From a virus, in the UHGV virus genome UHGV-0096789: a stretch of 19,581 bases of DNA. One strand, given 5' to 3'. This document shows, one piece after another, positions 7,964-19,531 of this stretch. Within the stretch, counting starts at the first letter, position 1; each line of letters starts with the position of its first letter. The notes under the pieces are model-generated. The model made no database searches. It saw only the letters and a list, made by a program, of their open reading frames with translations, and was not told the DNA's origin. Position numbers and translations under genes: made by a program.

Positions 7964-7990
7964 CGCGCTCCGCTTGTCTGCTGCTTCGCC

Positions 7991-8021
7991 GGGGCATAAA
8001 AATTTATGCCCCGACTCACCA
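7991..8021. repeat. Perfect hairpin (GGGGCATAAA/TTTATGCCCC) plus CCCCGACTCACCA core; left copy of an imperfect direct repeat
   Basis: Inverted repeat 7991-8012 between the convergent stops of Q (7963) and orf175 (8030); 13-nt core CCCCGACTCACCA at 8009-8021 recurs exactly at 9540-9552. Confidence 0.6.
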
Positions 8022-8029
8022 GCTCCGGC

Positions 8030-8557
8030 TTAACGAAGTGCAAAAGGAGTTCGTTTTTTCAGGCGGGCGGCGATGTGTCTTTTCATGCTTTTCGTCACCT
8101 CCGTCCATTTCCTGTCTTCCGGCGCAGTAATACTCACGCGAACAGAAATATCATCCTCCACGGTGACTTTCAGCGTGGTGCGAGCTTCGTTCACCGAATG
8201 CAGCTCAAACGCAACAACAATATCAACCGGCTCAATACCCGACAGTGATTCAATCCATGTACGCACGGCCACATGGAAAATACCGTCTGCTGCGACAGGG
8301 ATTTGATTAACAGAACAGGCGCGAAAGTCATCCGCGTTCCGACAGGGCAGGCCTGTTTCCACATAAGGCCGCGACTCGCCGTGTTCGTGTTCGCGGTACA
8401 GTGACGGAAGTCCCAGCCAGTCCTCATAAAACCCGACCAGCCTGCGGGCCTCATCCCGTAAGATTTCAGCGGCCCGACAACGCTTTCTTTCCACATCCCG
8501 GTTGATGCAACACAAATCCTCAAAGTGTCCCACGGATCCTCCTTCTGTTGATGTCAT
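8030..8557 (-). CDS. Hypothetical protein, 175 aa (cargo gene, no family recognised)
   Basis: ORF 8030..8692; start taken at ATG 8557..8555 (MTSTEGGSVGHFEDL...) with AGGA upstream; the 45-aa upstream extension is Cys-rich and lacks an RBS. Confidence 0.55.
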   Translation of the reverse strand: MTSTEGGSVGHFEDLCCINRDVERKRCRAAEILRDEARRLVGFYEDWLGLPSLYREHEHGESRPYVETGLPCRNADDFRACSVNQIPVAADGIFHVAVRTWIESLSGIEPVDIVVAFELHSVNEARTTLKVTVEDDISVRVSITAPEDRKWTEVTKSMKRHIAARLKKRTPFALR

Positions 8558-8953
8558 CTGTATCCTGTCGCGCTCCTCAATGGCGCGGACTGCACCACAC
8601 ACCCAGAACAAGCCACAGGGTGCGAATGAGATCGCGCAATGCACATGATACCCCAACAAAAAACATCGCGTCAGGGGCGCAATCAGCCGCATTTCTGGCG
8701 ATTTCTGAGGATGCTTTCAGCCCCCAAATTGCGGGCTGTTCCCCCGGCACCTGCGCGCAACAAAAACGCGTTTTTTTGTGCACGCACGGATCCTTTACGG
8801 ATCCAGCCGCCACGCGGGCCGGAAGGGTAAAAAGTCGTTCAAAAAAATTGTGCAAATTTGTGCACTATCGTGCAGTGTGCATCGTGCTGTTTTCTGCGCA
8901 AAAAACGGATGGTAAATTTGTTCGTAGCAGGGAAATTTTAATGAGCGCAAGAC
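8558..8953. promoter_or_regulatory. Repeat-rich 396-bp divergent control region between orf175 and the membrane-protein gene
   Basis: Hairpin CAGCCC-N9-GGGCTG (8718-8738); palindrome AAAAACGCGTTTTT (8762-8775); direct repeat ACGGATCC x2 (8786-8793, 8797-8804); five GTGC(A) repeats at 7-10-bp spacing (8850-8887) including inverted half-sites GTGCA-N6-TGCAC. Confidence 0.45.
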
Positions 8954-9484
8954 ATGAAGAAAGATTCATATCCTTATTTGATTTGCATGACTGTTTCAGT
9001 GCTAGGGATTATTTTCCTCTTTTACTGGTGGAGGGCAGATATCTACAGGATTACATATCTTAATTCGCGTATATCCAATTATTACATCTTGTGTAGTATG
9101 GGTATGTCCTTTTTCTTCTCCTTGTTTCTGGTGAAGAGGGGGGGAGTGAAGCAAAGTGGCTGGAAAGGACTGTCGGCATACCTGAAGGTTTATGCTGGCT
9201 CTTGCATTCTTACAGGGATATTCCTGATTATCCCTCTTATGATGGTGACTTATTTTTTACCAGGAGTAACATCATCATATGTTGCACCGTATGAGTATAC
9301 ATCTGGTAGTTCAAGAAGCTGTTCCGGAGCGTTTGTTGATGATCCCGAACTGCATAAAAATATTCTTATTTGCTATCCGTATGGTAACTATGAATATGAC
9401 AATATTATCTATGTTGAAAAGAAAACTAATGCATTGGGCGTTGTTGTGACGTATGCACAGACTGCACGAGACGATGCTGAATAA
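8954..9484 (+). CDS. Small integral membrane protein (3 predicted TM helices plus ~70-aa soluble C-terminal domain), AT-rich cargo gene
   Basis: 176-aa ORF; hydrophobic segments YLICMTVSVLGIIFLFYWW, YYILCSMGMSFFFSLFLV, VYAGSCILTGIFLIIPLMMVTYFL; visibly much lower GC than flanking phage genes; only ORF on the plus strand in the cargo region. Confidence 0.65.
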   Translation: MKKDSYPYLICMTVSVLGIIFLFYWWRADIYRITYLNSRISNYYILCSMGMSFFFSLFLVKRGGVKQSGWKGLSAYLKVYAGSCILTGIFLIIPLMMVTYFLPGVTSSYVAPYEYTSGSSRSCSGAFVDDPELHKNILICYPYGNYEYDNIIYVEKKTNALGVVVTYAQTARDDAE

Positions 9485-9521
9485 GATACTACAGAGATAG
9501 TCCACTTTTTTGTTTATTTGT

Positions 9522-9552
9522 CGGGATAAAAACAAATTACCCCGACTCACCA
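9522..9552. repeat. Right copy of the imperfect ~30-bp direct repeat (CGGGATAAAAACAAATTACCCCGACTCACCA)
   Basis: Shares the exact 13-nt core CCCCGACTCACCA (9540-9552) and an A-rich upstream part with 7991-8021; lies between the convergent ends of the membrane-protein gene and orf127. Confidence 0.55.
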
Positions 9553-9574
9553 TGTATTAATCTTCCGCTTTAAG

Positions 9575-9958
9575 TTAGTATTTTAGTTGCGCTGTCCTGC
9601 TGTGCAGCAAAGCGGCGTGCTTTAATGCGTCCTGTGCTTTCTGGAATTTAAGTGCATAGTCTGTGGCGATTTTTTCCAGTTCAGCGATTCGGTTGTCTTT
9701 GGTTTCCAGCCAATCAAGTAGCGCCAATACTTCAGGATCCCCGACATCCAACACTGTTACGCGTGATTTTTCATAATGTTCGTCGGCAAGAGTTCGGCCA
9801 ATTTTGAAATCTCCATCATCACCATAACCGGAGCAGGCATAAACAACCTGTGCTCCAGATATTCGCTGAATTGACATTTCCTCGCCGCAAATAGGGCATT
9901 TCGGTACTGGCACAGGTGAATAACGTTCACGTAATGCCTGATAGTTGATCTCGCTCAT
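9575..9958 (-). CDS. Hypothetical protein, 127 aa, N-terminal Cys cluster (CPICG...ACSG, zinc-ribbon-like) and helical C-terminus
   Basis: ORF with AAGGAGAA RBS before ATG 9958; co-oriented directly downstream of parR; moderate GC. Confidence 0.6.
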   Translation of the reverse strand: MSEINYQALRERYSPVPVPKCPICGEEMSIQRISGAQVVYACSGYGDDGDFKIGRTLADEHYEKSRVTVLDVGDPEVLALLDWLETKDNRIAELEKIATDYALKFQKAQDALKHAALLHSRTAQLKY

Positions 9959-9995
9959 TAAGTCGTTCTCCTTGTTTATGTTCTGAGGTGGAGAG

Positions 9996-10013
9996 CAGGG
10001 CGAACTCGCCCTG
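9996..10013 (-). repeat. Perfect 8-bp-stem inverted repeat (CAGGGCGA-AC-TCGCCCTG) between parR and orf127
   Basis: Read directly at 9996-10013; no U-tract on either strand, so more likely an RNA-stability or processing hairpin than a canonical terminator. Confidence 0.5.
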
Positions 10014-10021
10014 ATGTTGTG

Positions 10022-10333
10022 TTATTCAGGAAATAACGCCCGGATATTTCCGGCCATCTGACTGGTTATCTGTGCGGTTGATACTGGCTGTGATGCGGGG
10101 CGTTCTGTCCTGGTTTGTGTCACTGATAACGCTTCATCATCAGCCCATGCAGCTAGTCGGTAAGCCTCTGCCGGATTCATTTTCAGAAGTGCCAGCCCGG
10201 CCAGAAAAGCCACGCGTTGGCCGCTTTTGCGGGCTTCTGGTGTAAGACTGTCCAGCCAGGCACACGCTTCGCTTTCGTTCTTGACTGCGGCTGGCTTCAG
10301 ATAGAAACTTATCCGCTTGGTTGATGTTGTCAT
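10022..10333 (-). CDS. parR: ParR-like partition adaptor / DNA-binding protein
   Basis: 103-aa ORF 4 nt downstream of parM; resembles remembered plasmid R1 ParR (ISFYLKPA vs IAFKLNPD; LDSLTPEARKSGQRVAFLAGLAL vs LDSIPQGERSRLNRAALTAGLAL; C-terminal IRALFPE vs LRSLFPKE). Confidence 0.7.
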   Translation of the reverse strand: MTTSTKRISFYLKPAAVKNESEACAWLDSLTPEARKSGQRVAFLAGLALLKMNPAEAYRLAAWADDEALSVTQTRTERPASQPVSTAQITSQMAGNIRALFPE

Positions 10334-10337
10334 TGGC

Positions 10338-11297
10338 TCACTCCCTGTTCATGTCATGGAGTCCATTAACCAGGGCAAACTGTGGCTCCGGTGTTGTGTG
10401 AATGTTTGCGTTGAGGCCGTAAGCGTCATGTACCGCCGGAGCCACAATCTCCGCCCCACCACCAACAACCATCACCCGACCGTACCCCGAAAAACCCGCC
10501 AGTGCGCGGATCACGCGTTGTTTCAGTGTTTCTTCCTTTTCACGAATAACCGCCATCAGGCTGGCGTAATGCGCGTCATTGTGGATGTGCTGGCGCAGCC
10601 AGGCTTCATCGTGGCGATGTTCGATAATGGTACTGGCGATGTGGTGGCTGGTACGCATACCGTTGGTGGCCATCACCGACAGCACGGCATCGGTCATCAG
10701 TGAAACGCCTACGTGTGGATCGCAAAATACCTGGCTGATACCTGCCAGTTGCCCCTGAACCTTTGCCACATCCAGCGTGGTACCGCCCAAATCCACAATC
10801 AGCAGGGATTCAAACGGACTCATGTCAGCCAGTGCCTTAAAGCCTGCCGGAATGGATTCAGGCATAACCCGCACGTTACGGATAGTGAATGCCTCACCGT
10901 TCTGGTACTCCACCGGGCGCATGACGTTCGCTTTTTTGCGGTTGATGTTGGTCATATCCGGCTGTGCGTTTGTGTCGAAATACTCGCTCAGTGGCAGGGT
11001 GACAACCACATCCACTTCCTGTGGCGTAATACCTGATTTGACCAGCGCATGATGAATGGCAATGACATTCACATCGCTGTACTGGTATTGCGTGTCGGTC
11101 GTCCGGACAAAGCGATCGCTGACCGGATCAAAACCATAGCGCACGCCATCAAGCATGTAGTTCGCGGGCTGCGTGCCACCGAACGGCGCAGACCATTCCG
11201 ACTTGAAGCTGTTCGGGCTGATGGCGTTGCGGCGTTCGCCGTTCTCAGTCCATGCCAGCTTGATGTTGGTGGAGCCGTCGTCGATACAAATTTTCAT
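10338..11297 (-). CDS. parM: ParM/StbA-family actin-like ATPase
   Basis: 319-aa ORF with actin-fold signatures shared with R1 ParM: MKICIDDGSTNIKLAW, ISPNSFK, QYSDVNVIAIHHAL, RKKAN, FTIRNVRVMPESIPAG, LLIVDLGGTTLD, GVSLMT, FSGYGRVMVVGGGAE, LVNG; AAGGAAAAG RBS. Confidence 0.9.
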   Translation of the reverse strand: MKICIDDGSTNIKLAWTENGERRNAISPNSFKSEWSAPFGGTQPANYMLDGVRYGFDPVSDRFVRTTDTQYQYSDVNVIAIHHALVKSGITPQEVDVVVTLPLSEYFDTNAQPDMTNINRKKANVMRPVEYQNGEAFTIRNVRVMPESIPAGFKALADMSPFESLLIVDLGGTTLDVAKVQGQLAGISQVFCDPHVGVSLMTDAVLSVMATNGMRTSHHIASTIIEHRHDEAWLRQHIHNDAHYASLMAVIREKEETLKQRVIRALAGFSGYGRVMVVGGGAEIVAPAVHDAYGLNANIHTTPEPQFALVNGLHDMNRE

Positions 11298-11328
11298 GTC
11301 GCTTTTCCTTATGTTGATTAATTAATCG

Positions 11329-11440
11329 TTTACGGGATTCTGAAATCCCGCTTTTGCCTGTTTTGTGCGCGCTTCATATATCGCGGCGCGTTTTTTGCTC
11401 ATTTACGGGATTTGTGAATCCCGTTTCTGTCTGTTTTTTG
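11329..11440. repeat. Two ~40-bp direct repeats, each a hairpin core (ACGGGATT-N4/5-AATCCCG) plus T-rich tail, spanning the A 3' end and the A-parM spacer
   Basis: R1 TTTACGGGATTCTGAAATCCCGCTTTTGCCTGTTTTGTG (11329-11367) and R2 TTTACGGGATTTGTGAATCCCGTTTCTGTCTGTTTTTTG (11402-11440); R2 lies inside the A reading frame, R1 between the A stop and parM start. Confidence 0.6.
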
Positions 11441-14214
11441 TTTCCACTGGTCAGGCCACCCCGCAGCAGGTCTGCTTTGCGGCGGGCGCGTTCAGTGGTT
11501 TCACTGATTCTCTGTGCGTGCTCTGCGTCGCGGATGGCGCGCAGCATGTCAGAAAGCACGGTAACGGGTGTTTTCATGGTGTTCTGGTCTTGCTGAAGTG
11601 TGGATGCCAGGCGTGCGGCGGCTTCAGGGTCTGATGCCCCCAGCTGTTCCAGATAGCTGGCGACCGGGTTATGGCGGATCTCCGTGCTGCTTACGCCGTG
11701 ATTACGGCTCAGGCGTTGCCAGAGTTGCGTGATTAGGCCGTCCGGGCGGGTATCCGGTTTGCGTACAATTTCAAATCCCTGCGGTGCAATGATGCTGCCG
11801 TCAACGTACAGACTGCCGCCCCGTAACAGGTGCTGCATCTGCTGTTCACCGATATGCAGGCCGAGAGATTCAGCAGACTCCCGCCATTCTTTAGCGAGTA
11901 ACTCGTGGTTATCAGGCAAAGGTCGCGGCTGTTTGCGGCTCTGTGTCCAGTTCTGCATTTCATCGCTGCTGTTTTTTGCCTGTTTGTCACGCAGCGAACG
12001 CATCAGCGCCCGGCGTTCGTGCCGTTTCAGTGAGCGCATCCATTCATTCACTTCAATGCCGTCAGGAATCTGCGGCCACGGTGCTGGCCGTTCTTCCGGC
12101 TGTTCTGTCCCGCTGTTGTCTGTTTCCTGTACACGGGGACAGTTATTGCCACGAGTCCAAGGGGCGGCAGGGCCGCCCTGAAGGTCAAAACCATTTTCGC
12201 GGGAGCTGTCTTCCGCTTCCGGTTTACGTCTTACCAGCTTCCAGTTATCCGGGTGTGTGCACACACGGGAGGATTCCCCGATGAGTGGTGACCAGATCCC
12301 GTAAATCTGTACACTCTGTTCGCCGTAATCGTTCAGCTCATCTGCGAGGTCGTAGGCGGTGCGAATCAGGTAGTCTTTACGTGGAACAAGTACGCCGCCC
12401 TGTTTCTCAATGTAGGTGGCAAAACATCCGGCATCAGCGGCAGCAAGAACCGCATCCATTGCGTCATCCTTCAGCTGTTGTGGGCCTTCCGGGTTGCGTG
12501 CCATCTGGCTGGCAAGGCGGCGCAGTTCACGCCACACCTGACGGGAGGGGATACCAAAGAACTGGAACTGGCGGACCCGGTGAAGGCGCGCCCAGCCGAT
12601 GGCGCGCTCCACGCTCTCGGCCATTGATTTTCCGGTTTCGTGGTCAACGCGTGGCTTGCCCGTTTTCGGGTCGATACCATCCACGGCGCGGCTGTCCAGG
12701 TTCTTTCCGATGTAGGTGGCGATGTAGCTGGTTGGCGTGCCTTTTGAGCCGTCGACGTACTCCGCTTTAAAACGCGGAGTGATGTCATCGCCCAGCTCGT
12801 GGCGGTCTTCCTGAATGGCAATATCGCAGACGTGGGACACGATGGTTTCAATCTCGTCCGGATGTGCAAAGACCATCATATGCCAGTGCACAGTGCCGTC
12901 ATGGTGAGGCTCCACCGTGCGGATGCCATACCAGCGAAGACCGTCGCGGTTCAGTTTTTTGCGGACCGCCGCAAAAAACGTGTTAACCAGGTAATCGCTG
13001 GAGTCGCGCATGGTGGCCCCGTTCCATTTGGGATTCGGATGACCGTTCTCCGTTGTTGCGTGGTATTTTGACGGGCAGGTGACAGTCAGAAACACCGCTC
13101 TGTCGCCACGGGCTTCGGCCAGAAGTTCCAGCCCCTTCATGGTGGCCATCATTTCTGCCTTACGGTGAACCGGGTTACTTACTCCCGCGTAATAAACCGT
13201 CTCGAGATCAATCGTGAACCCGTCTTCATTTTCCAGCATGAAACTTTTCAGGAAATCGCGAGTTTTCTCGCGCTGTGCGCGAAACTCGCTTAACGCGTCC
13301 TGGCTCAGATAGGGTGATGTTTTTCTGGAAACCAGACAGGCGGCGCGGAGTTGTTCTTCTCTCCACTCGCAACGTAACAGCCACAGTTTGCGTTTCCACC
13401 ATTCCGCACAGGTCAGGCGAAGGATTGCGCCTGGCAGCAGCTCCGTGTCCGGTTCGTTCCTCCGATCTCTATCTGTTGTCAGTGCGTCATAATGTGGAGG
13501 CATGGCGTGCAGGTGTAACGCCATGCGGGCCAGCATCTGATACGCCTTCAGCGTTACATCCATGGTCAGCTCGCCATCAGTCGCGCCAAAGCCATCGCAG
13601 AGTTTTTCGAAGGTGCTGCTGAACATCGCCGCCGTCATGGTGGCCAGCGTCTGTATCTGGTGCTTGTTAAGCTGCGGCAGGTACAGCAAATCATCCAGGC
13701 GTTCGCGTCCGGCAAGGGCGCGATAACCCCGTGTCAGCCAGCGGCTGTCGGTGCGGTCCAGACGTTCGAATATTTTGCGCAGGGTTCCGCGCGCGTAGCC
13801 CTCTGCTGGTCGACTCTTTTTGCCTTTCTGGCGGTCAGATTCCTGCTTCTTACGTAAAAAAGAGAGGCGGCGGCTCAGTGGTTCACGCAGATAAACAGGT
13901 AGTGCCTTTAGTGTGACAAATGCACGGGCCACCGGGTCTTGTTCTGTTGCCCGGCGCTTACTGATGATGCTCTGTGCCAGCTTTTCACGCTGTCCGGCTT
14001 CCTCAAGGGATGCCATGAGTTTTTTACCCATGGCGGATTGTGCGAAAAAGGCTTCCTCCTTCGCTTCCTGTTCTTCCCGTGCCTTTTTGTCCGCCTCAAG
14101 GTAGTAACGGATGGCGCGTTGCAGGTCGGTTTCAGTTTCCTGACTGCGCTCCGTAAATCTGGCCGGATCAATGGCTGGCCGTGGTTCATTCCAGCTCCAT
14201 GCAAACTCACTCAT
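11374..14214 (-). CDS. A: Replication initiation endonuclease (gpA-like rolling-circle initiator), with a long C-terminal extension
   Basis: ORF 11374..14241 (track starts at GTG); first ATG at 14214 overlaps the upstream gene stop (ATGA); conserved core FLTVTCPSKYH...YGIRTVEPHHDGTVHWHMMVF matches remembered P2 A; ~946 aa versus ~760 aa for P2 A. Confidence 0.85.
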   Translation of the reverse strand: MSEFAWSWNEPRPAIDPARFTERSQETETDLQRAIRYYLEADKKAREEQEAKEEAFFAQSAMGKKLMASLEEAGQREKLAQSIISKRRATEQDPVARAFVTLKALPVYLREPLSRRLSFLRKKQESDRQKGKKSRPAEGYARGTLRKIFERLDRTDSRWLTRGYRALAGRERLDDLLYLPQLNKHQIQTLATMTAAMFSSTFEKLCDGFGATDGELTMDVTLKAYQMLARMALHLHAMPPHYDALTTDRDRRNEPDTELLPGAILRLTCAEWWKRKLWLLRCEWREEQLRAACLVSRKTSPYLSQDALSEFRAQREKTRDFLKSFMLENEDGFTIDLETVYYAGVSNPVHRKAEMMATMKGLELLAEARGDRAVFLTVTCPSKYHATTENGHPNPKWNGATMRDSSDYLVNTFFAAVRKKLNRDGLRWYGIRTVEPHHDGTVHWHMMVFAHPDEIETIVSHVCDIAIQEDRHELGDDITPRFKAEYVDGSKGTPTSYIATYIGKNLDSRAVDGIDPKTGKPRVDHETGKSMAESVERAIGWARLHRVRQFQFFGIPSRQVWRELRRLASQMARNPEGPQQLKDDAMDAVLAAADAGCFATYIEKQGGVLVPRKDYLIRTAYDLADELNDYGEQSVQIYGIWSPLIGESSRVCTHPDNWKLVRRKPEAEDSSRENGFDLQGGPAAPWTRGNNCPRVQETDNSGTEQPEERPAPWPQIPDGIEVNEWMRSLKRHERRALMRSLRDKQAKNSSDEMQNWTQSRKQPRPLPDNHELLAKEWRESAESLGLHIGEQQMQHLLRGGSLYVDGSIIAPQGFEIVRKPDTRPDGLITQLWQRLSRNHGVSSTEIRHNPVASYLEQLGASDPEAAARLASTLQQDQNTMKTPVTVLSDMLRAIRDAEHAQRISETTERARRKADLLRGGLTSGNKKQTETGFTNPVNEQKTRRDI

Positions 14215-14600
14215 GGCTGGTATCCCGTCACGTGCTGCCACTCCTGCGAGAAGAGGGCGGAAAGGCGGTTAAATTCAGCGGTGTATTCACTCAGCGAGGC
14301 ACACCCGCCAGCAGTGTGATGCGCCAGCATTGCCGCAAATACGGAGGCCGGGGAGTCGTAATACGCCAGCAGTGATTCGCCGTGTGGTGTCAGGCAGTGC
14401 AACGCCAGCCCGTGTGGTGTGAAGTCCACGCGGTAGCAGTCGTCTACTGTGAAATAAAGGGTGTCCGCATTCTCCGGTTTTGTGGTGCGTGTTCTGTTGT
14501 CACGACCACGGATGTAGAGATCAAATAATCCCTGAAGAACGGGAGCCAGACGGGTGTCCTGTGTGCGCACCCATCTTGTGAAGTCATGAGCGTCAATCAT
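14211..14600 (-). CDS. Hypothetical early protein, 129 aa, translationally coupled to A
   Basis: ORF with stop overlapping the A start; AAAGAGAA upstream of ATG 14600; no family recognised. Confidence 0.5.
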   Translation of the reverse strand: MIDAHDFTRWVRTQDTRLAPVLQGLFDLYIRGRDNRTRTTKPENADTLYFTVDDCYRVDFTPHGLALHCLTPHGESLLAYYDSPASVFAAMLAHHTAGGCASLSEYTAEFNRLSALFSQEWQHVTGYQP

Positions 14601-14903: not shown

Positions 14904-15078
14904 GGTGTGGCCTCTTGTGTAGTAAGTTGTGAAAACTCACCATCCAGAGCTGCGAAACTGTGGGTGGCGAGACGTACGAGGTTCGCAGTACCGGCTACAC
15001 AAGAACCCGGCCCGACCGAAGTCGGCCCCGTACGCCCCGCCATAATTCTGGCGCGAAAAAAACGTGGCAATACAGTAC

Positions 15079-15108
15079 GCACAAAAAAACCGCTGGCGCG
15101 GTTGTGCG
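15079..15108 (-). terminator. Minus-strand intrinsic-terminator-like element downstream of orf183
   Basis: On the minus strand: stem CCGC-GCCA-GCGG followed by TTTTTTT, nested in outer inverted repeat CGCACAA/TTGTGCG; ~120 nt after the orf183 stop. Confidence 0.4.
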
Positions 15109-15223
15109 CTTGTGTAGTTAGCAGGCTGCGAAACCCGGCACCCGTTTTATGAGGTGCAGCGGAAATGTAACCTGACTGATTGCGGCATGGCAAGCGGTTT
15201 TTTTGTGTGTACATAGTGGTTAC

Positions 15224-17635: not shown

Positions 17636-18061
17636 TTATGCTGCTTTACCGCTGATATTTCTGTTTCGCCTGCCACTTGTTGGCTTAAATAAAAACAGAC
17701 GGTTTTCCCAGTCGTGCCATTCCTGAGGTGCGTTTTCGATGAGTCGATCGCATGCTTCATCCCACGCTTTTCTGTTGATGTAGAGTTCAGCGTTTCCGCC
17801 TGGTTTGAGAGGGTCCGCCATATACACCGCAGGTAGCTTTCCTGCTTTGGCCATGCTTACGATGGCGTCAACGGTCTTTCCGATATATATCGCAAATCCT
17901 TCTTTTGACAGGAGATGCGAGGGATTTTCTGAAAGTCGAATTTCTTCACGTTCACGTGCTTTGCGTCCTGTTTTTTGATGCTCCCCTTCTGGCATTTTTG
18001 GCTGGTGATCGCATCGTGTTTCGCAAAGTGACTCAGGCGCGTTTTGAGTGCTTTCTTGCAT
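17636..18061 (-). CDS. Cox/Apl-like HTH protein at the first position of the early lytic operon (probable excision/switch regulator), 141 aa
   Basis: Strong GGAGGA RBS 7 nt before ATG 18061; divergent from C; central HTH-like segment FAIYIGKTVDAIVSMAKAGKLPAV; longer than P2 Cox (91 aa). Confidence 0.55.
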   Translation of the reverse strand: MQESTQNAPESLCETRCDHQPKMPEGEHQKTGRKAREREEIRLSENPSHLLSKEGFAIYIGKTVDAIVSMAKAGKLPAVYMADPLKPGGNAELYINRKAWDEACDRLIENAPQEWHDWENRLFLFKPTSGRRNRNISGKAA

Positions 18062-18169: not shown

Positions 18170-18469
18170 ATGTCAACTACCGTAGCTATGAAAATTCGCA
18201 TCATGCGGAAGTCAGAAATGCTTACGCAAGAAAAAATGGCAGAGATTACTGGGCTTACTCTTGCTGCATTAAGGCAATATGAGCAAGGACGAAATGAACC
18301 CAACCTTGAGTCAACAAAAAAGCTTCTGAAAGCTCCCATGTTCCGTAAGTACCGCGACTGGTTTCTGTTTGATGAAGTTGACCCCAAGACCGGGCAGGTT
18401 GTGCCGGCTCTCGCACACATTGGGCAAGGCGAAGCGGAATTATCCCGCTCCGGCAAGAAAACTGGTTAA
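18170..18469 (+). CDS. C: Immunity repressor (P2 C-like)
   Basis: 99-aa ORF resembling remembered P2 C (same length; IRIMRKSE..., PALAH.GQ, C-terminal SGKKTG); immediately upstream of int as in P2. Confidence 0.85.
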   Translation: MSTTVAMKIRIMRKSEMLTQEKMAEITGLTLAALRQYEQGRNEPNLESTKKLLKAPMFRKYRDWFLFDEVDPKTGQVVPALAHIGQGEAELSRSGKKTG

Positions 18470-18490: not shown

Positions 18491-18535
18491 CCCAGAGCTG
18501 TGATCAAGATGATGTTTTCATTGGAGGGCTTCCTT

Positions 18536-19531
18536 ATGTCGATTAAGAAGCTCGCTAATGGCAAATTTTGTGTGGACGTGCGGCCTGCTGGATCGGAAGG
18601 AAAGAGATTCAGACGGCGATTTGATACTCGTGGTGAGGCTGTTTTGTATGAGCGTCATGTATTGCAGCATTACCACGACAAAGACTGGGTTGATAAGCCA
18701 ACAGAACGGCGCTCGCTGAGGGAGTTGCTGGATTGTTGGTGGCTATACCACGGGAAAAATCATCCTTATGGTGCGATGGAGCGAGTGCGTATTTCTGCGG
18801 TCATTAGTGATCTTGAAAGTATTAATGTTACACGCAGTGACCAACTTACTCGTAAGAACATAATTAATTATCGCTTATTGCTGCTTAACCGCGGAATAAA
18901 ACAATCCACGGTTAATCGTTATTGTGCAATGATGAGTGGTTTCTTCACAAAACTAATTGACGCAGAGGAATATTCTGGGGCTAATCCGTTTCATGATATA
19001 AAAAAACTTAATATCAAACAGCCTGAAATGGCTTATTTGTATCATGAAGATATTCCACGATTACTGGAGTTGTTATCTGGTGATGAATTAAAAGCCGTCT
19101 TGTTGTGTCTGGCAACAGGTGGAAGATGGAGTGAGGTTGCAAATATCAAGGGGGAGCATGTTATTAGCGGCAAAGTCATTTTTATGGAAACCAAAAATGG
19201 GAAGCGTCGCGTTATACCTATATCGTCAGAACTGGAGTGCATGATTAAAACAAAGGCCACTGGTCGTTTAATTTATCCAAGTTATGCAGCTGTCAGAGCT
19301 GCTATCAGAAAGGTGAGGCCCGATCTTCCTGAAGGGCAGTCGATACATGTTTTACGGCATACCTTTGCCACTCACTTCATGATTAATGGTGGGAATATCA
19401 TCACTTTGCAGAGAATACTTGGACATAGCACTATTCAGCAGACGATGACTTATGCCCATTTTGCACCGGATTATCTACAGGATGCTGTGCGCTTTAATCC
19501 TGTGGCTGAGTTGTCCAGATATTGCCCATAA
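18536..19531 (+). CDS. int: Tyrosine integrase (P2 Int-like)
   Basis: ORF 18500..19531; start taken at ATG 18536 (MSIKKLANGKFCVDVRPAGSEGKRFRRRF...) with GGAGGG 6 nt upstream; C-terminal catalytic region HVLRHTFATHFMINGGNIITLQRILGHSTIQQTMTYAHFAPDYLQDAV nearly identical in pattern to P2 Int. Confidence 0.9.
   Translation: MSIKKLANGKFCVDVRPAGSEGKRFRRRFDTRGEAVLYERHVLQHYHDKDWVDKPTERRSLRELLDCWWLYHGKNHPYGAMERVRISAVISDLESINVTRSDQLTRKNIINYRLLLLNRGIKQSTVNRYCAMMSGFFTKLIDAEEYSGANPFHDIKKLNIKQPEMAYLYHEDIPRLLELLSGDELKAVLLCLATGGRWSEVANIKGEHVISGKVIFMETKNGKRRVIPISSELECMIKTKATGRLIYPSYAAVRAAIRKVRPDLPEGQSIHVLRHTFATHFMINGGNIITLQRILGHSTIQQTMTYAHFAPDYLQDAVRFNPVAELSRYCP

Follow-up and report, generated by a model that had tools for sequence, protein, structure and literature searches.

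The parMR cassette and its candidate centromere

We analyzed a 19,581-nt stretch of the virus genome UHGV-0096789 (the window, to which all coordinates refer), in which two adjacent genes, parM and parR, encode an actin-like ATPase and a short adaptor protein similar to those of the ParMRC (type II) partition systems of plasmids such as R1. Both open reading frames (ORFs) were confirmed on the minus strand (Table 1). Gene A, coding for the replication-initiating nickase, adjoins parM upstream in the same orientation, with 76 nt between its stop codon and the parM start, and thus the pair indeed forms a co-oriented module directly downstream of gene A, as stated in an earlier note made from the sequence alone.

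Judging by its genes, the window phage is a P2-like, more specifically P88-like, prophage (Xuanwuvirus, Peduoviridae). The gene order is that of the RefSeq record of Escherichia phage P88 (replication endonuclease, ParM, partition protein), and the genes for the terminase large subunit and the portal protein lie on the other side of the cassette from gene A. The integrative nature of the prophage, also suggested in the earlier note, is supported by profile matches to the tyrosine integrase, the C repressor, and Cox, and by a close relative, 99.8% identical over window positions 9500-11500, which is integrated in the Escherichia coli chromosome beside glsA; the window itself stops 50 nt past int, and the host junction lies outside it. 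In RefSeq, the products of the cassette are named “plasmid segregation protein ParM” and “plasmid partitioning/stability family protein,” and in PHROGs both genes belong to “partition protein” families (phrog_691 and phrog_2515).

The assignment of the two proteins to the ParM/StbA and ParR families was confirmed by profile and structure-sequence searches. ParM scores far above the Pfam cut-offs for both StbA_N (3.9e-82) and the ParM C-terminal domain (4.8e-65), and its whole length can be aligned with R1 ParM of known structure (PDB:1mwk; E = 7.6e-92, residues 2-314). It is 47% identical over the full length to ParM of R100, used here as the R1-type plasmid reference, and 52% identical to ParM of the IncI1/B/O and IncL/M plasmids, whose ParMR are the closest true plasmid homologs. 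The motifs shared with R100 are intact, namely, DDGSTN (residue 6), MPES (145), DLGGTT (169), and GGGAE (279), and Glu147 of MPES and Asp169 of DLGGTT correspond to Glu148 and Asp170 of R1, respectively. In R1 ParM, the respective elements are phosphate 1, the catalytic glutamate, phosphate 2 with Asp170, and the adenosine motif.

In order to estimate selection and conservation, we compared 85 related loci (P88, one circular record, three species-representative genomes, and 80 IMG/VR contigs). The pairwise ratio of nonsynonymous to synonymous substitution rates (dN/dS) equals 0.076 for parM, which is the more strongly constrained gene of the pair, and the parM ribosome-binding site is nearly invariant in 84 aligned loci. 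In parR, the ratio differs between the protein regions, being 0.31 in the core, 0.71 in the linker, and 0.20 in the C-terminal tail. The parR start codon lies 4 nt past the parM stop codon, with a GGGAG ribosome-binding site within 10337-10345.

ParR matches the Pfam family Plasmid_stab_B (PF10784, the StbB/ParR family) at 3e-24. A word-indexed protein search with ParR reached close relatives only, and a sequence search of PDB produced no match. With hhalign, the ParR profile aligns with residues 4-66 of R100 ParR (96.8% probability, 30% identity) and with ParR of IncL/M (95% probability), the DNA-binding domain being 25-30% identical to those of plasmid ParRs. The protein consists of an N-terminal DNA-binding domain homologous to that of R1-type ParR, a hypervariable linker (approximately residues 65-92), and a conserved C-terminal tail, MAGNIRALFPE, or KKNIQAFFPE in a second allele group. 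The tail aligns with the extreme C-termini of IncI1, IncL/M, and R100 ParR; in particular, NIRALFPE resembles NIKNLFPDDE and NVQHLFPDDD of the IncI1/B/O and IncL/M proteins. In R1, the C-terminal tail of ParR is the ParM-binding peptide, and the similarity, together with a helix predicted at residues 86-100, suggests a tail of the ParM-filament-binding type in the phage protein. At the same time, phage ParR is short, 103 amino acids (aa) compared to 117 aa in R100, from which it differs in the middle part, and 140-147 aa in IncI1/B/O and IncL/M. The AlphaFold2 model of the monomer, built on a 20-sequence alignment, is of low confidence (mean predicted local distance difference test score of 57) and features the expected pattern of an unstructured N-terminal segment, three helices, a disordered linker, and a C-terminal helix; residues 1-17 are unstructured in the model, as would be expected of a strand that forms only in the dimer.

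The linker exists in many unrelated variants among 58 alleles, yet the protein length is nearly fixed (103-104 aa), and both flanking domains are conserved. Diversifying selection may act on it, or it may serve as a neutral spacer whose length is constrained.

Upstream repeats, mentioned in the earlier note along with the genes, are present as well. Two 42-nt copies of the direct-repeat family D1 lie 73 nt apart upstream of parM, with the gene A stop codon between them, and each contains an 18-bp palindrome, CGGGATT-N4-AATCCCG. The palindrome occurs twice in the 19.6-kb window (0.00 occurrences expected) and twice in a complete 34.5-kb relative, both times upstream of parM. All 84 aligned related sequences retain it, occasionally in a single-base variant, and the diversity of the A–parM intergenic region (0.057) is about half of that at parM synonymous sites (0.107). 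The last approximately seven codons of gene A are set by the distal palindrome.

From its sequence and position, the repeat pair is a candidate parC centromere with predicted ParR-binding sites. Two repeat blocks around a central segment are likewise found in R100 parC, where the blocks are 94 nt apart, and upstream of parM in IncI1 and IncL/M (61-83 nt), and, with the repeat pair taken as parC, the order parC–parM–parR is the same in R100 and the phage. However, R1-type parC is built of ten direct 11-bp iterons, whereas the phage has two palindromic units; moreover, the phage cassette resides in an integrating phage, its parM follows a replication gene, and no TTGACA-type promoter is recognizable between the repeat blocks.

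A reading of the palindromes as RNA hairpins or terminators was rejected, since their T-rich tails belong to the plus strand and the genes to the minus strand. The changes in the arms are single-sided and not compensatory, a pattern that a protein-binding site would allow and that speaks against an RNA hairpin. Covariation between the ParR allele groups and palindrome variants, sought as evidence of binding, was not observed; both groups share the invariant strand RRISFYLKP and one site consensus.

No terminator-like site was found on the minus strand between A and parM. Given this, the common orientation, and the short gap, parMR are most likely co-expressed with A. A scan for the sigma-70 consensus upstream of parM produced no promoter; as the same scan misses the experimentally known R100 parC promoter, this negative result carries little weight.

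Table 1. Features of the window discussed in the text, with the cassette and its upstream region given first.
Feature	Position	Strand	Description
parM	10338-11297	-	319-aa actin-like ATPase, R1 type
parR	10022-10333	-	103-aa short-form adaptor
parM ribosome-binding site	11302-11310	-	AAGGAAAAG, read from the sequence; ends 5 nt before ATG
Candidate parC, proximal 42-nt repeat	11326-11367	.	Palindrome CGGGATT-CTGA-AATCCCG (11333-11350), in the A–parM gap
Candidate parC, distal 42-nt repeat	11399-11440	.	Palindrome CGGGATT-TGTG-AATCCCG (11406-11423), overlaps the last gene A codons
Gene A	11374-14241	-	Replication-initiating nickase; Phage_GPA, 3.6e-129; PHROG 91 “nicking at origin of replication,” 1.5e-276
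Integrase (tyrosine)	18500-19531		Profile match
C repressor	18170-18469		Profile match
Cox	17636-18061		Profile match
Hypervariable cargo region	7964-10021		Between the portal gene and parR
Cargo ORF, 220 aa	8030-8692	-	phrog_5091, unknown function
Island in the cargo region	~8720-8920		~200 nt, apparently non-coding
Cargo ORF, 176 aa	8954-9484	+	phrog_1416, unknown function
Ead/Ea22-like gene	9575-9958	-	Product with a CxxC motif
Mechanical ORF, 205 aa	14597-15214		Weak Ash-family match; probably not a real full-length gene
C4 antisense RNA	14960-15047	-	Rfam, 83 bits
isrK	15083-15157	-	Hfq-binding small RNA; Rfam, 66.5 bits

Conservation and distribution

The parM gene is an intact ORF of 319 codons in all 85 related loci, and parR is intact wherever the contig allows, with the exception of one locus. 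The block conserved among the loci stops exactly at the parR stop codon, and the first 300 nt past it fall into 20 unrelated sequence clusters among 65 loci. The GC (guanine and cytosine) content of the cassette, 0.53-0.55, equals that of the phage backbone, compared to 0.39-0.44 in the adjoining cargo and 0.39 in R100 parM. Hence, the cassette is a core module of the P88-like lineage rather than recent cargo, and it does not belong to an adjacent unrelated insertion, the finding that, according to the earlier note, would have spoken against a phage module. Anti-phage defense cargo was considered and is not supported: a PADLOC scan of ParM, ParR, and five neighboring ORFs yielded no match, and the cassette is invariant, the variable region beginning only after the parR stop.

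To characterize the distribution of the cassette, we searched 5426 complete E. coli genomes. The parM query was found in 1303 of them, that is, in about a quarter (24%), at 1441 chromosomal and two plasmid places, and the gene A query, at 1627 chromosomal and two plasmid places. With near-full coverage required, the P88-type A gene (a 2-kb query) is present in 1320 genomes, and parM, in 1279, so that the cassette accompanies approximately 97% of P88-type A genes. Our first 2-kb query had produced 43 plasmid places, which fell to two when parM or A alone was used; the excess came from the flanking Ead/Ea22-like gene, which evidently circulates on plasmids as well, rather than from the cassette.

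Among 50,697 phage records, proteins similar to ParM (E < 1e-8) are restricted to P88-like phages and the P1-like phage-plasmid D6 (46.5% identity). Among 72,556 PLSDB plasmids, six records have ParM at approximately 93% identity, and the next best match is at 52.6%. In five of these six, ParM belongs to a prophage residing in a replicon of 228 kb to 1.4 Mb. The sixth, NZ_CP148288.1, deposited as an E. coli plasmid, is a circular record of 34,461 bp that constitutes a whole P88-like phage, closed where int meets the ogr/dam end; it could represent a genuine episome or replicative DNA present after excision. Another strain of that project carries in its chromosome a phage 99.9% identical to this record. 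A partially matching 26.8-kb “plasmid” of Shigella boydii is no episome, as the record is linear and unplaced and contains a fragment of a prophage. Thus, Xuanwuvirus-type prophages are overwhelmingly integrated, and the records do not point to their maintenance as autonomous replicons.

ParM is 93% identical within the phage clade and no more than 52.6% identical to that of any plasmid, and this clean gap indicates that the phage cassette is an old and separate clade of the R1-type family and not a recent capture. A scan of species-representative genomes with ParM produced three loci only, and the sampling of taxa beyond Escherichia, Salmonella, and Citrobacter is poor. ParM 93% identical to that of the window is also encoded on a 226-kb contig labeled as the Gram-positive Vagococcus sp. 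(NZ_JBQPOM010000071.1), which is most likely enterobacterial contamination or a mislabeled assembly.

The module is therefore not peculiar to the window prophage: it is a core feature of Xuanwuvirus (phage P88), annotated in RefSeq and PHROGs. The gene annotation and the existence of partition systems in integrative elements were already known; the unusual features are the short ParR and the two-unit palindromic candidate centromere overlapping the end of gene A. Partition systems are usually read as a plasmid marker, and here an R1-type ParMRC is core to an integrating, nearly always chromosomal lineage; hence, when an enterobacterial contig matches “plasmid segregation protein ParM,” this is poor evidence that the contig is a plasmid.

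Proposed function of the cassette and alternative explanations

Taking these observations together, we believe that the cassette is probably a working type II (ParMRC) partition system, forming a core early-operon module of the P88-like phages of the P2 family, and that its most likely mode of action is in cis, on the phage genome in its circular form, during the period when the early replication operon is expressed. The steps proposed below for ParR and the filament follow the mechanism of R1 ParMRC. ParR dimers would bind the two palindrome-bearing repeats straddling the end of gene A, the C-terminal tail of ParR would capture the ends of ParM–ATP filaments, and filament growth between two ParR–parC complexes would push sister circular phage genomes apart. 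Produced together with the replication proteins by co-transcription from the early operon, ParM and ParR would be active after infection or derepression, when the genome is a circle undergoing A-dependent rolling-circle replication, and the cassette would be silent in the lysogen. The expected effect is that replicating circles are spread through the cell and into both daughters, and that the transient episome is not lost or clumped before integration, re-integration, or packaging, with efficient replication being supported.

The presence of a segregation system in such a phage was termed unexpected in the earlier note. The integrative setting is real, but the wording is too strong, since two systems of this kind are known from integrated elements. 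SrpMRC of the SXT/R391 integrative and conjugative elements (ICEs) keeps the element stable while it is transiently excised and is expressed only when the excision functions are (PMC4489591). Similarly to the phage cassette, it is a type II locus conserved in a normally integrated element family; it is thought to be relevant only for the excised replicating circle, the role proposed for the phage cassette as well. On the other hand, SrpM is distant from R1 ParM and SrpR has no recognizable homology to ParR, whereas the phage proteins are canonical R1-type ones; the host element is an ICE with relaxase-driven replication; and the function of SrpMRC has been demonstrated experimentally, while the phage cassette is known from sequence.

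The second system, AlpC/AlpA/alpS of the Corynebacterium glutamicum prophage CGP3, consists of an actin-like filament former and a DNA-binding adaptor (PMC4446434, PMC5539076); its expression is switched on early, it binds DNA upstream of its own genes, and without it the circular phage DNA does not replicate efficiently (PMC4446434). Here, the common features are an integrated prophage and a filament former with an adaptor whose binding sites, predicted ones in the case of the P88-like phages, lie upstream of the operon itself. The differences are that AlpC belongs to a highly divergent actin-like family, that the host is Gram-positive, and that in the window cassette, unlike AlpAC, the adaptor gene is downstream of the filament gene.

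By analogy with AlpAC, the benefit to the phage could well consist in the organization of lytic replication, although we put this forward tentatively; by analogy with SrpMRC, it is possible, if somewhat doubtful, that the benefit is the inheritance of a transient episome. Computation does not separate the three functional options listed in the earlier note, namely, stabilization of an excised or replicating episomal form, positioning of phage DNA during lytic growth, and a repurposed role such as interference with incoming plasmid-like phages; only a stable plasmid lifestyle is clearly disfavored. P88 and PhiSM form plaques and lysogenize on E. coli K-12, which makes them a tractable Gram-negative model, equipped with the best-understood actin-like segregation machine, in which one can ask why a virus that integrates should retain machinery for DNA segregation. 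This machinery may serve to organize rolling-circle replication and the packaging of monomer circles in space, or it may keep the transient episome from being lost.

Several considerations weigh against a working partition system of this kind. A lytic cycle gives little time for cell division, and hence the benefit of partition is not obvious; other P2-like phages do without the cassette. Phage ParR is a short form without approximately 40 residues from the middle of plasmid ParR, which might alter the formation of higher-order complexes. The candidate parC contains two units (four half-sites) compared to ten iterons in R1, its arms tolerate single-base changes, and its conservation is only moderate. 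A promoter may exist within the repeat region. Finally, the PhiSM homolog has been named only in a table, as a “fitness” cargo gene (PMC6456863), and no functional study of the P88-type cassette was found in the literature searched.

An extension of the proposed mechanism is a hidden carrier state, in which an unintegrated P88-like genome persists for generations as a low-copy circle replicated by A and segregated by ParMRC. We consider such a state unlikely; it might arise, for example, where attB is absent or occupied, or after non-lethal excision. The 34.5-kb circular record is compatible with it but does not demonstrate it. If it exists, P88-like phages would be facultative phage-plasmids, blurring the line between integrative and plasmid prophages in the P2 family, and the modeling of the stability and spread of these common prophages would change.

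Alternatively, the cassette might act in trans, with resident ParR, alone or with ParM, binding parC of incoming related phages or plasmids and causing their mis-partitioning or silencing. In favor of such centromere-based incompatibility or exclusion, par loci are known to cause incompatibility through partition, the cassette adjoins the hypervariable stretch separating parR from the portal gene, a hotspot of cargo and defense genes in P2, and the high dN/dS of the ParR linker would fit such a role. However, the cassette matched no PADLOC defense model and is conserved core, not variable cargo, while titration needs neither a strongly constrained full ATPase nor a cis centromere-like site. 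Cross-reaction with plasmids is unlikely given the low identity of the ParR domain to the plasmid ones and the difference between the phage repeats and plasmid iterons, and two ParR allele groups with one palindrome give no sign of specificity diversification. Overall, interference in trans appears quite unlikely.

A facultative or stable phage-plasmid, whose low-copy circles are inherited for many generations with ParMRC as the maintenance system, is distinctly improbable. The model for this lifestyle is the P1-like D6, a 91-kb extrachromosomal prophage in which partition is expected and which carries the StbA-type ParM mentioned above, whereas P88-like phages integrate. Apart from this precedent, the argument for it is NZ_CP148288.1, whose circular sequence is an entire phage; however, the lone circle could be excised replicating DNA of a spontaneously induced culture, its near-identical counterpart is integrated, and the integrase is conserved. 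The distribution also disagrees with stable plasmids, both in E. coli, where only two plasmid places are known for each of parM and A, and in PLSDB, where five of the six plasmids with this type of ParM harbor it in prophages within large replicons.

It is very improbable that the cassette is a regulatory remnant, in which ParR, acting where gene A ends, would mainly regulate or block read-through to the distal early or cargo genes, and ParM would no longer segregate DNA. R1 ParR is an autorepressor too, the predicted ParR sites straddle the gene A stop codon, and ParR is shortened, all in agreement with this role; but a remnant would not account for the strong purifying selection on parM, the complete set of intact ATPase motifs, and the conserved tail of the ParM-binding type. 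Lastly, a plasmid cassette caught by chance and decaying without function, for which one can cite the related P2-like phages lacking it, is effectively refuted by the data on selection and conservation, as parM is intact in all loci and constrained, the closest plasmid ParM is only 52.6% identical, the GC content is 0.55 rather than the 0.39 of R100 parM, and the cassette is present with nearly all P88-type A genes.

Flanking genes and RNAs

The cargo region between the portal gene and parR differs strongly between related phages. The window sequence 500-1100 nt downstream of parR is common to only about 3% of 64 related loci, and positions 8020-8720, to 0-2%; the low GC content (0.39-0.44) applies to positions 8700-9900. 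By their location, the ORFs of this region, that is, two ORFs of unknown function and the Ead/Ea22-like gene (Table 1), are candidate defense or exclusion genes, with no PADLOC match. Between variable flanks on both sides, the island at approximately 8720-8920 is common to 48-85% of related loci and is rich in short repeats such as GTGCA. It may be a cos/packaging site splitting the cargo region into two hotspots; a search with the P2 cos sequence gave no match.

Protein A comprises 955 aa, of which the Pfam GPA domain spans residues 194-518 only; the C-terminal approximately 430 residues belong to no Pfam family and have PHROG matches only of unknown function. In the early region, the genes for the C4 antisense RNA and isrK are located side by side, and the 205-aa mechanical ORF overlaps both. 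RefSeq relatives have a “derepression protein” and a partial “ash family protein” annotated here, and the C4/isrK arrangement suggests an antisense-controlled antirepressor switch, similar to that of P1/P7, in a P2-like phage.

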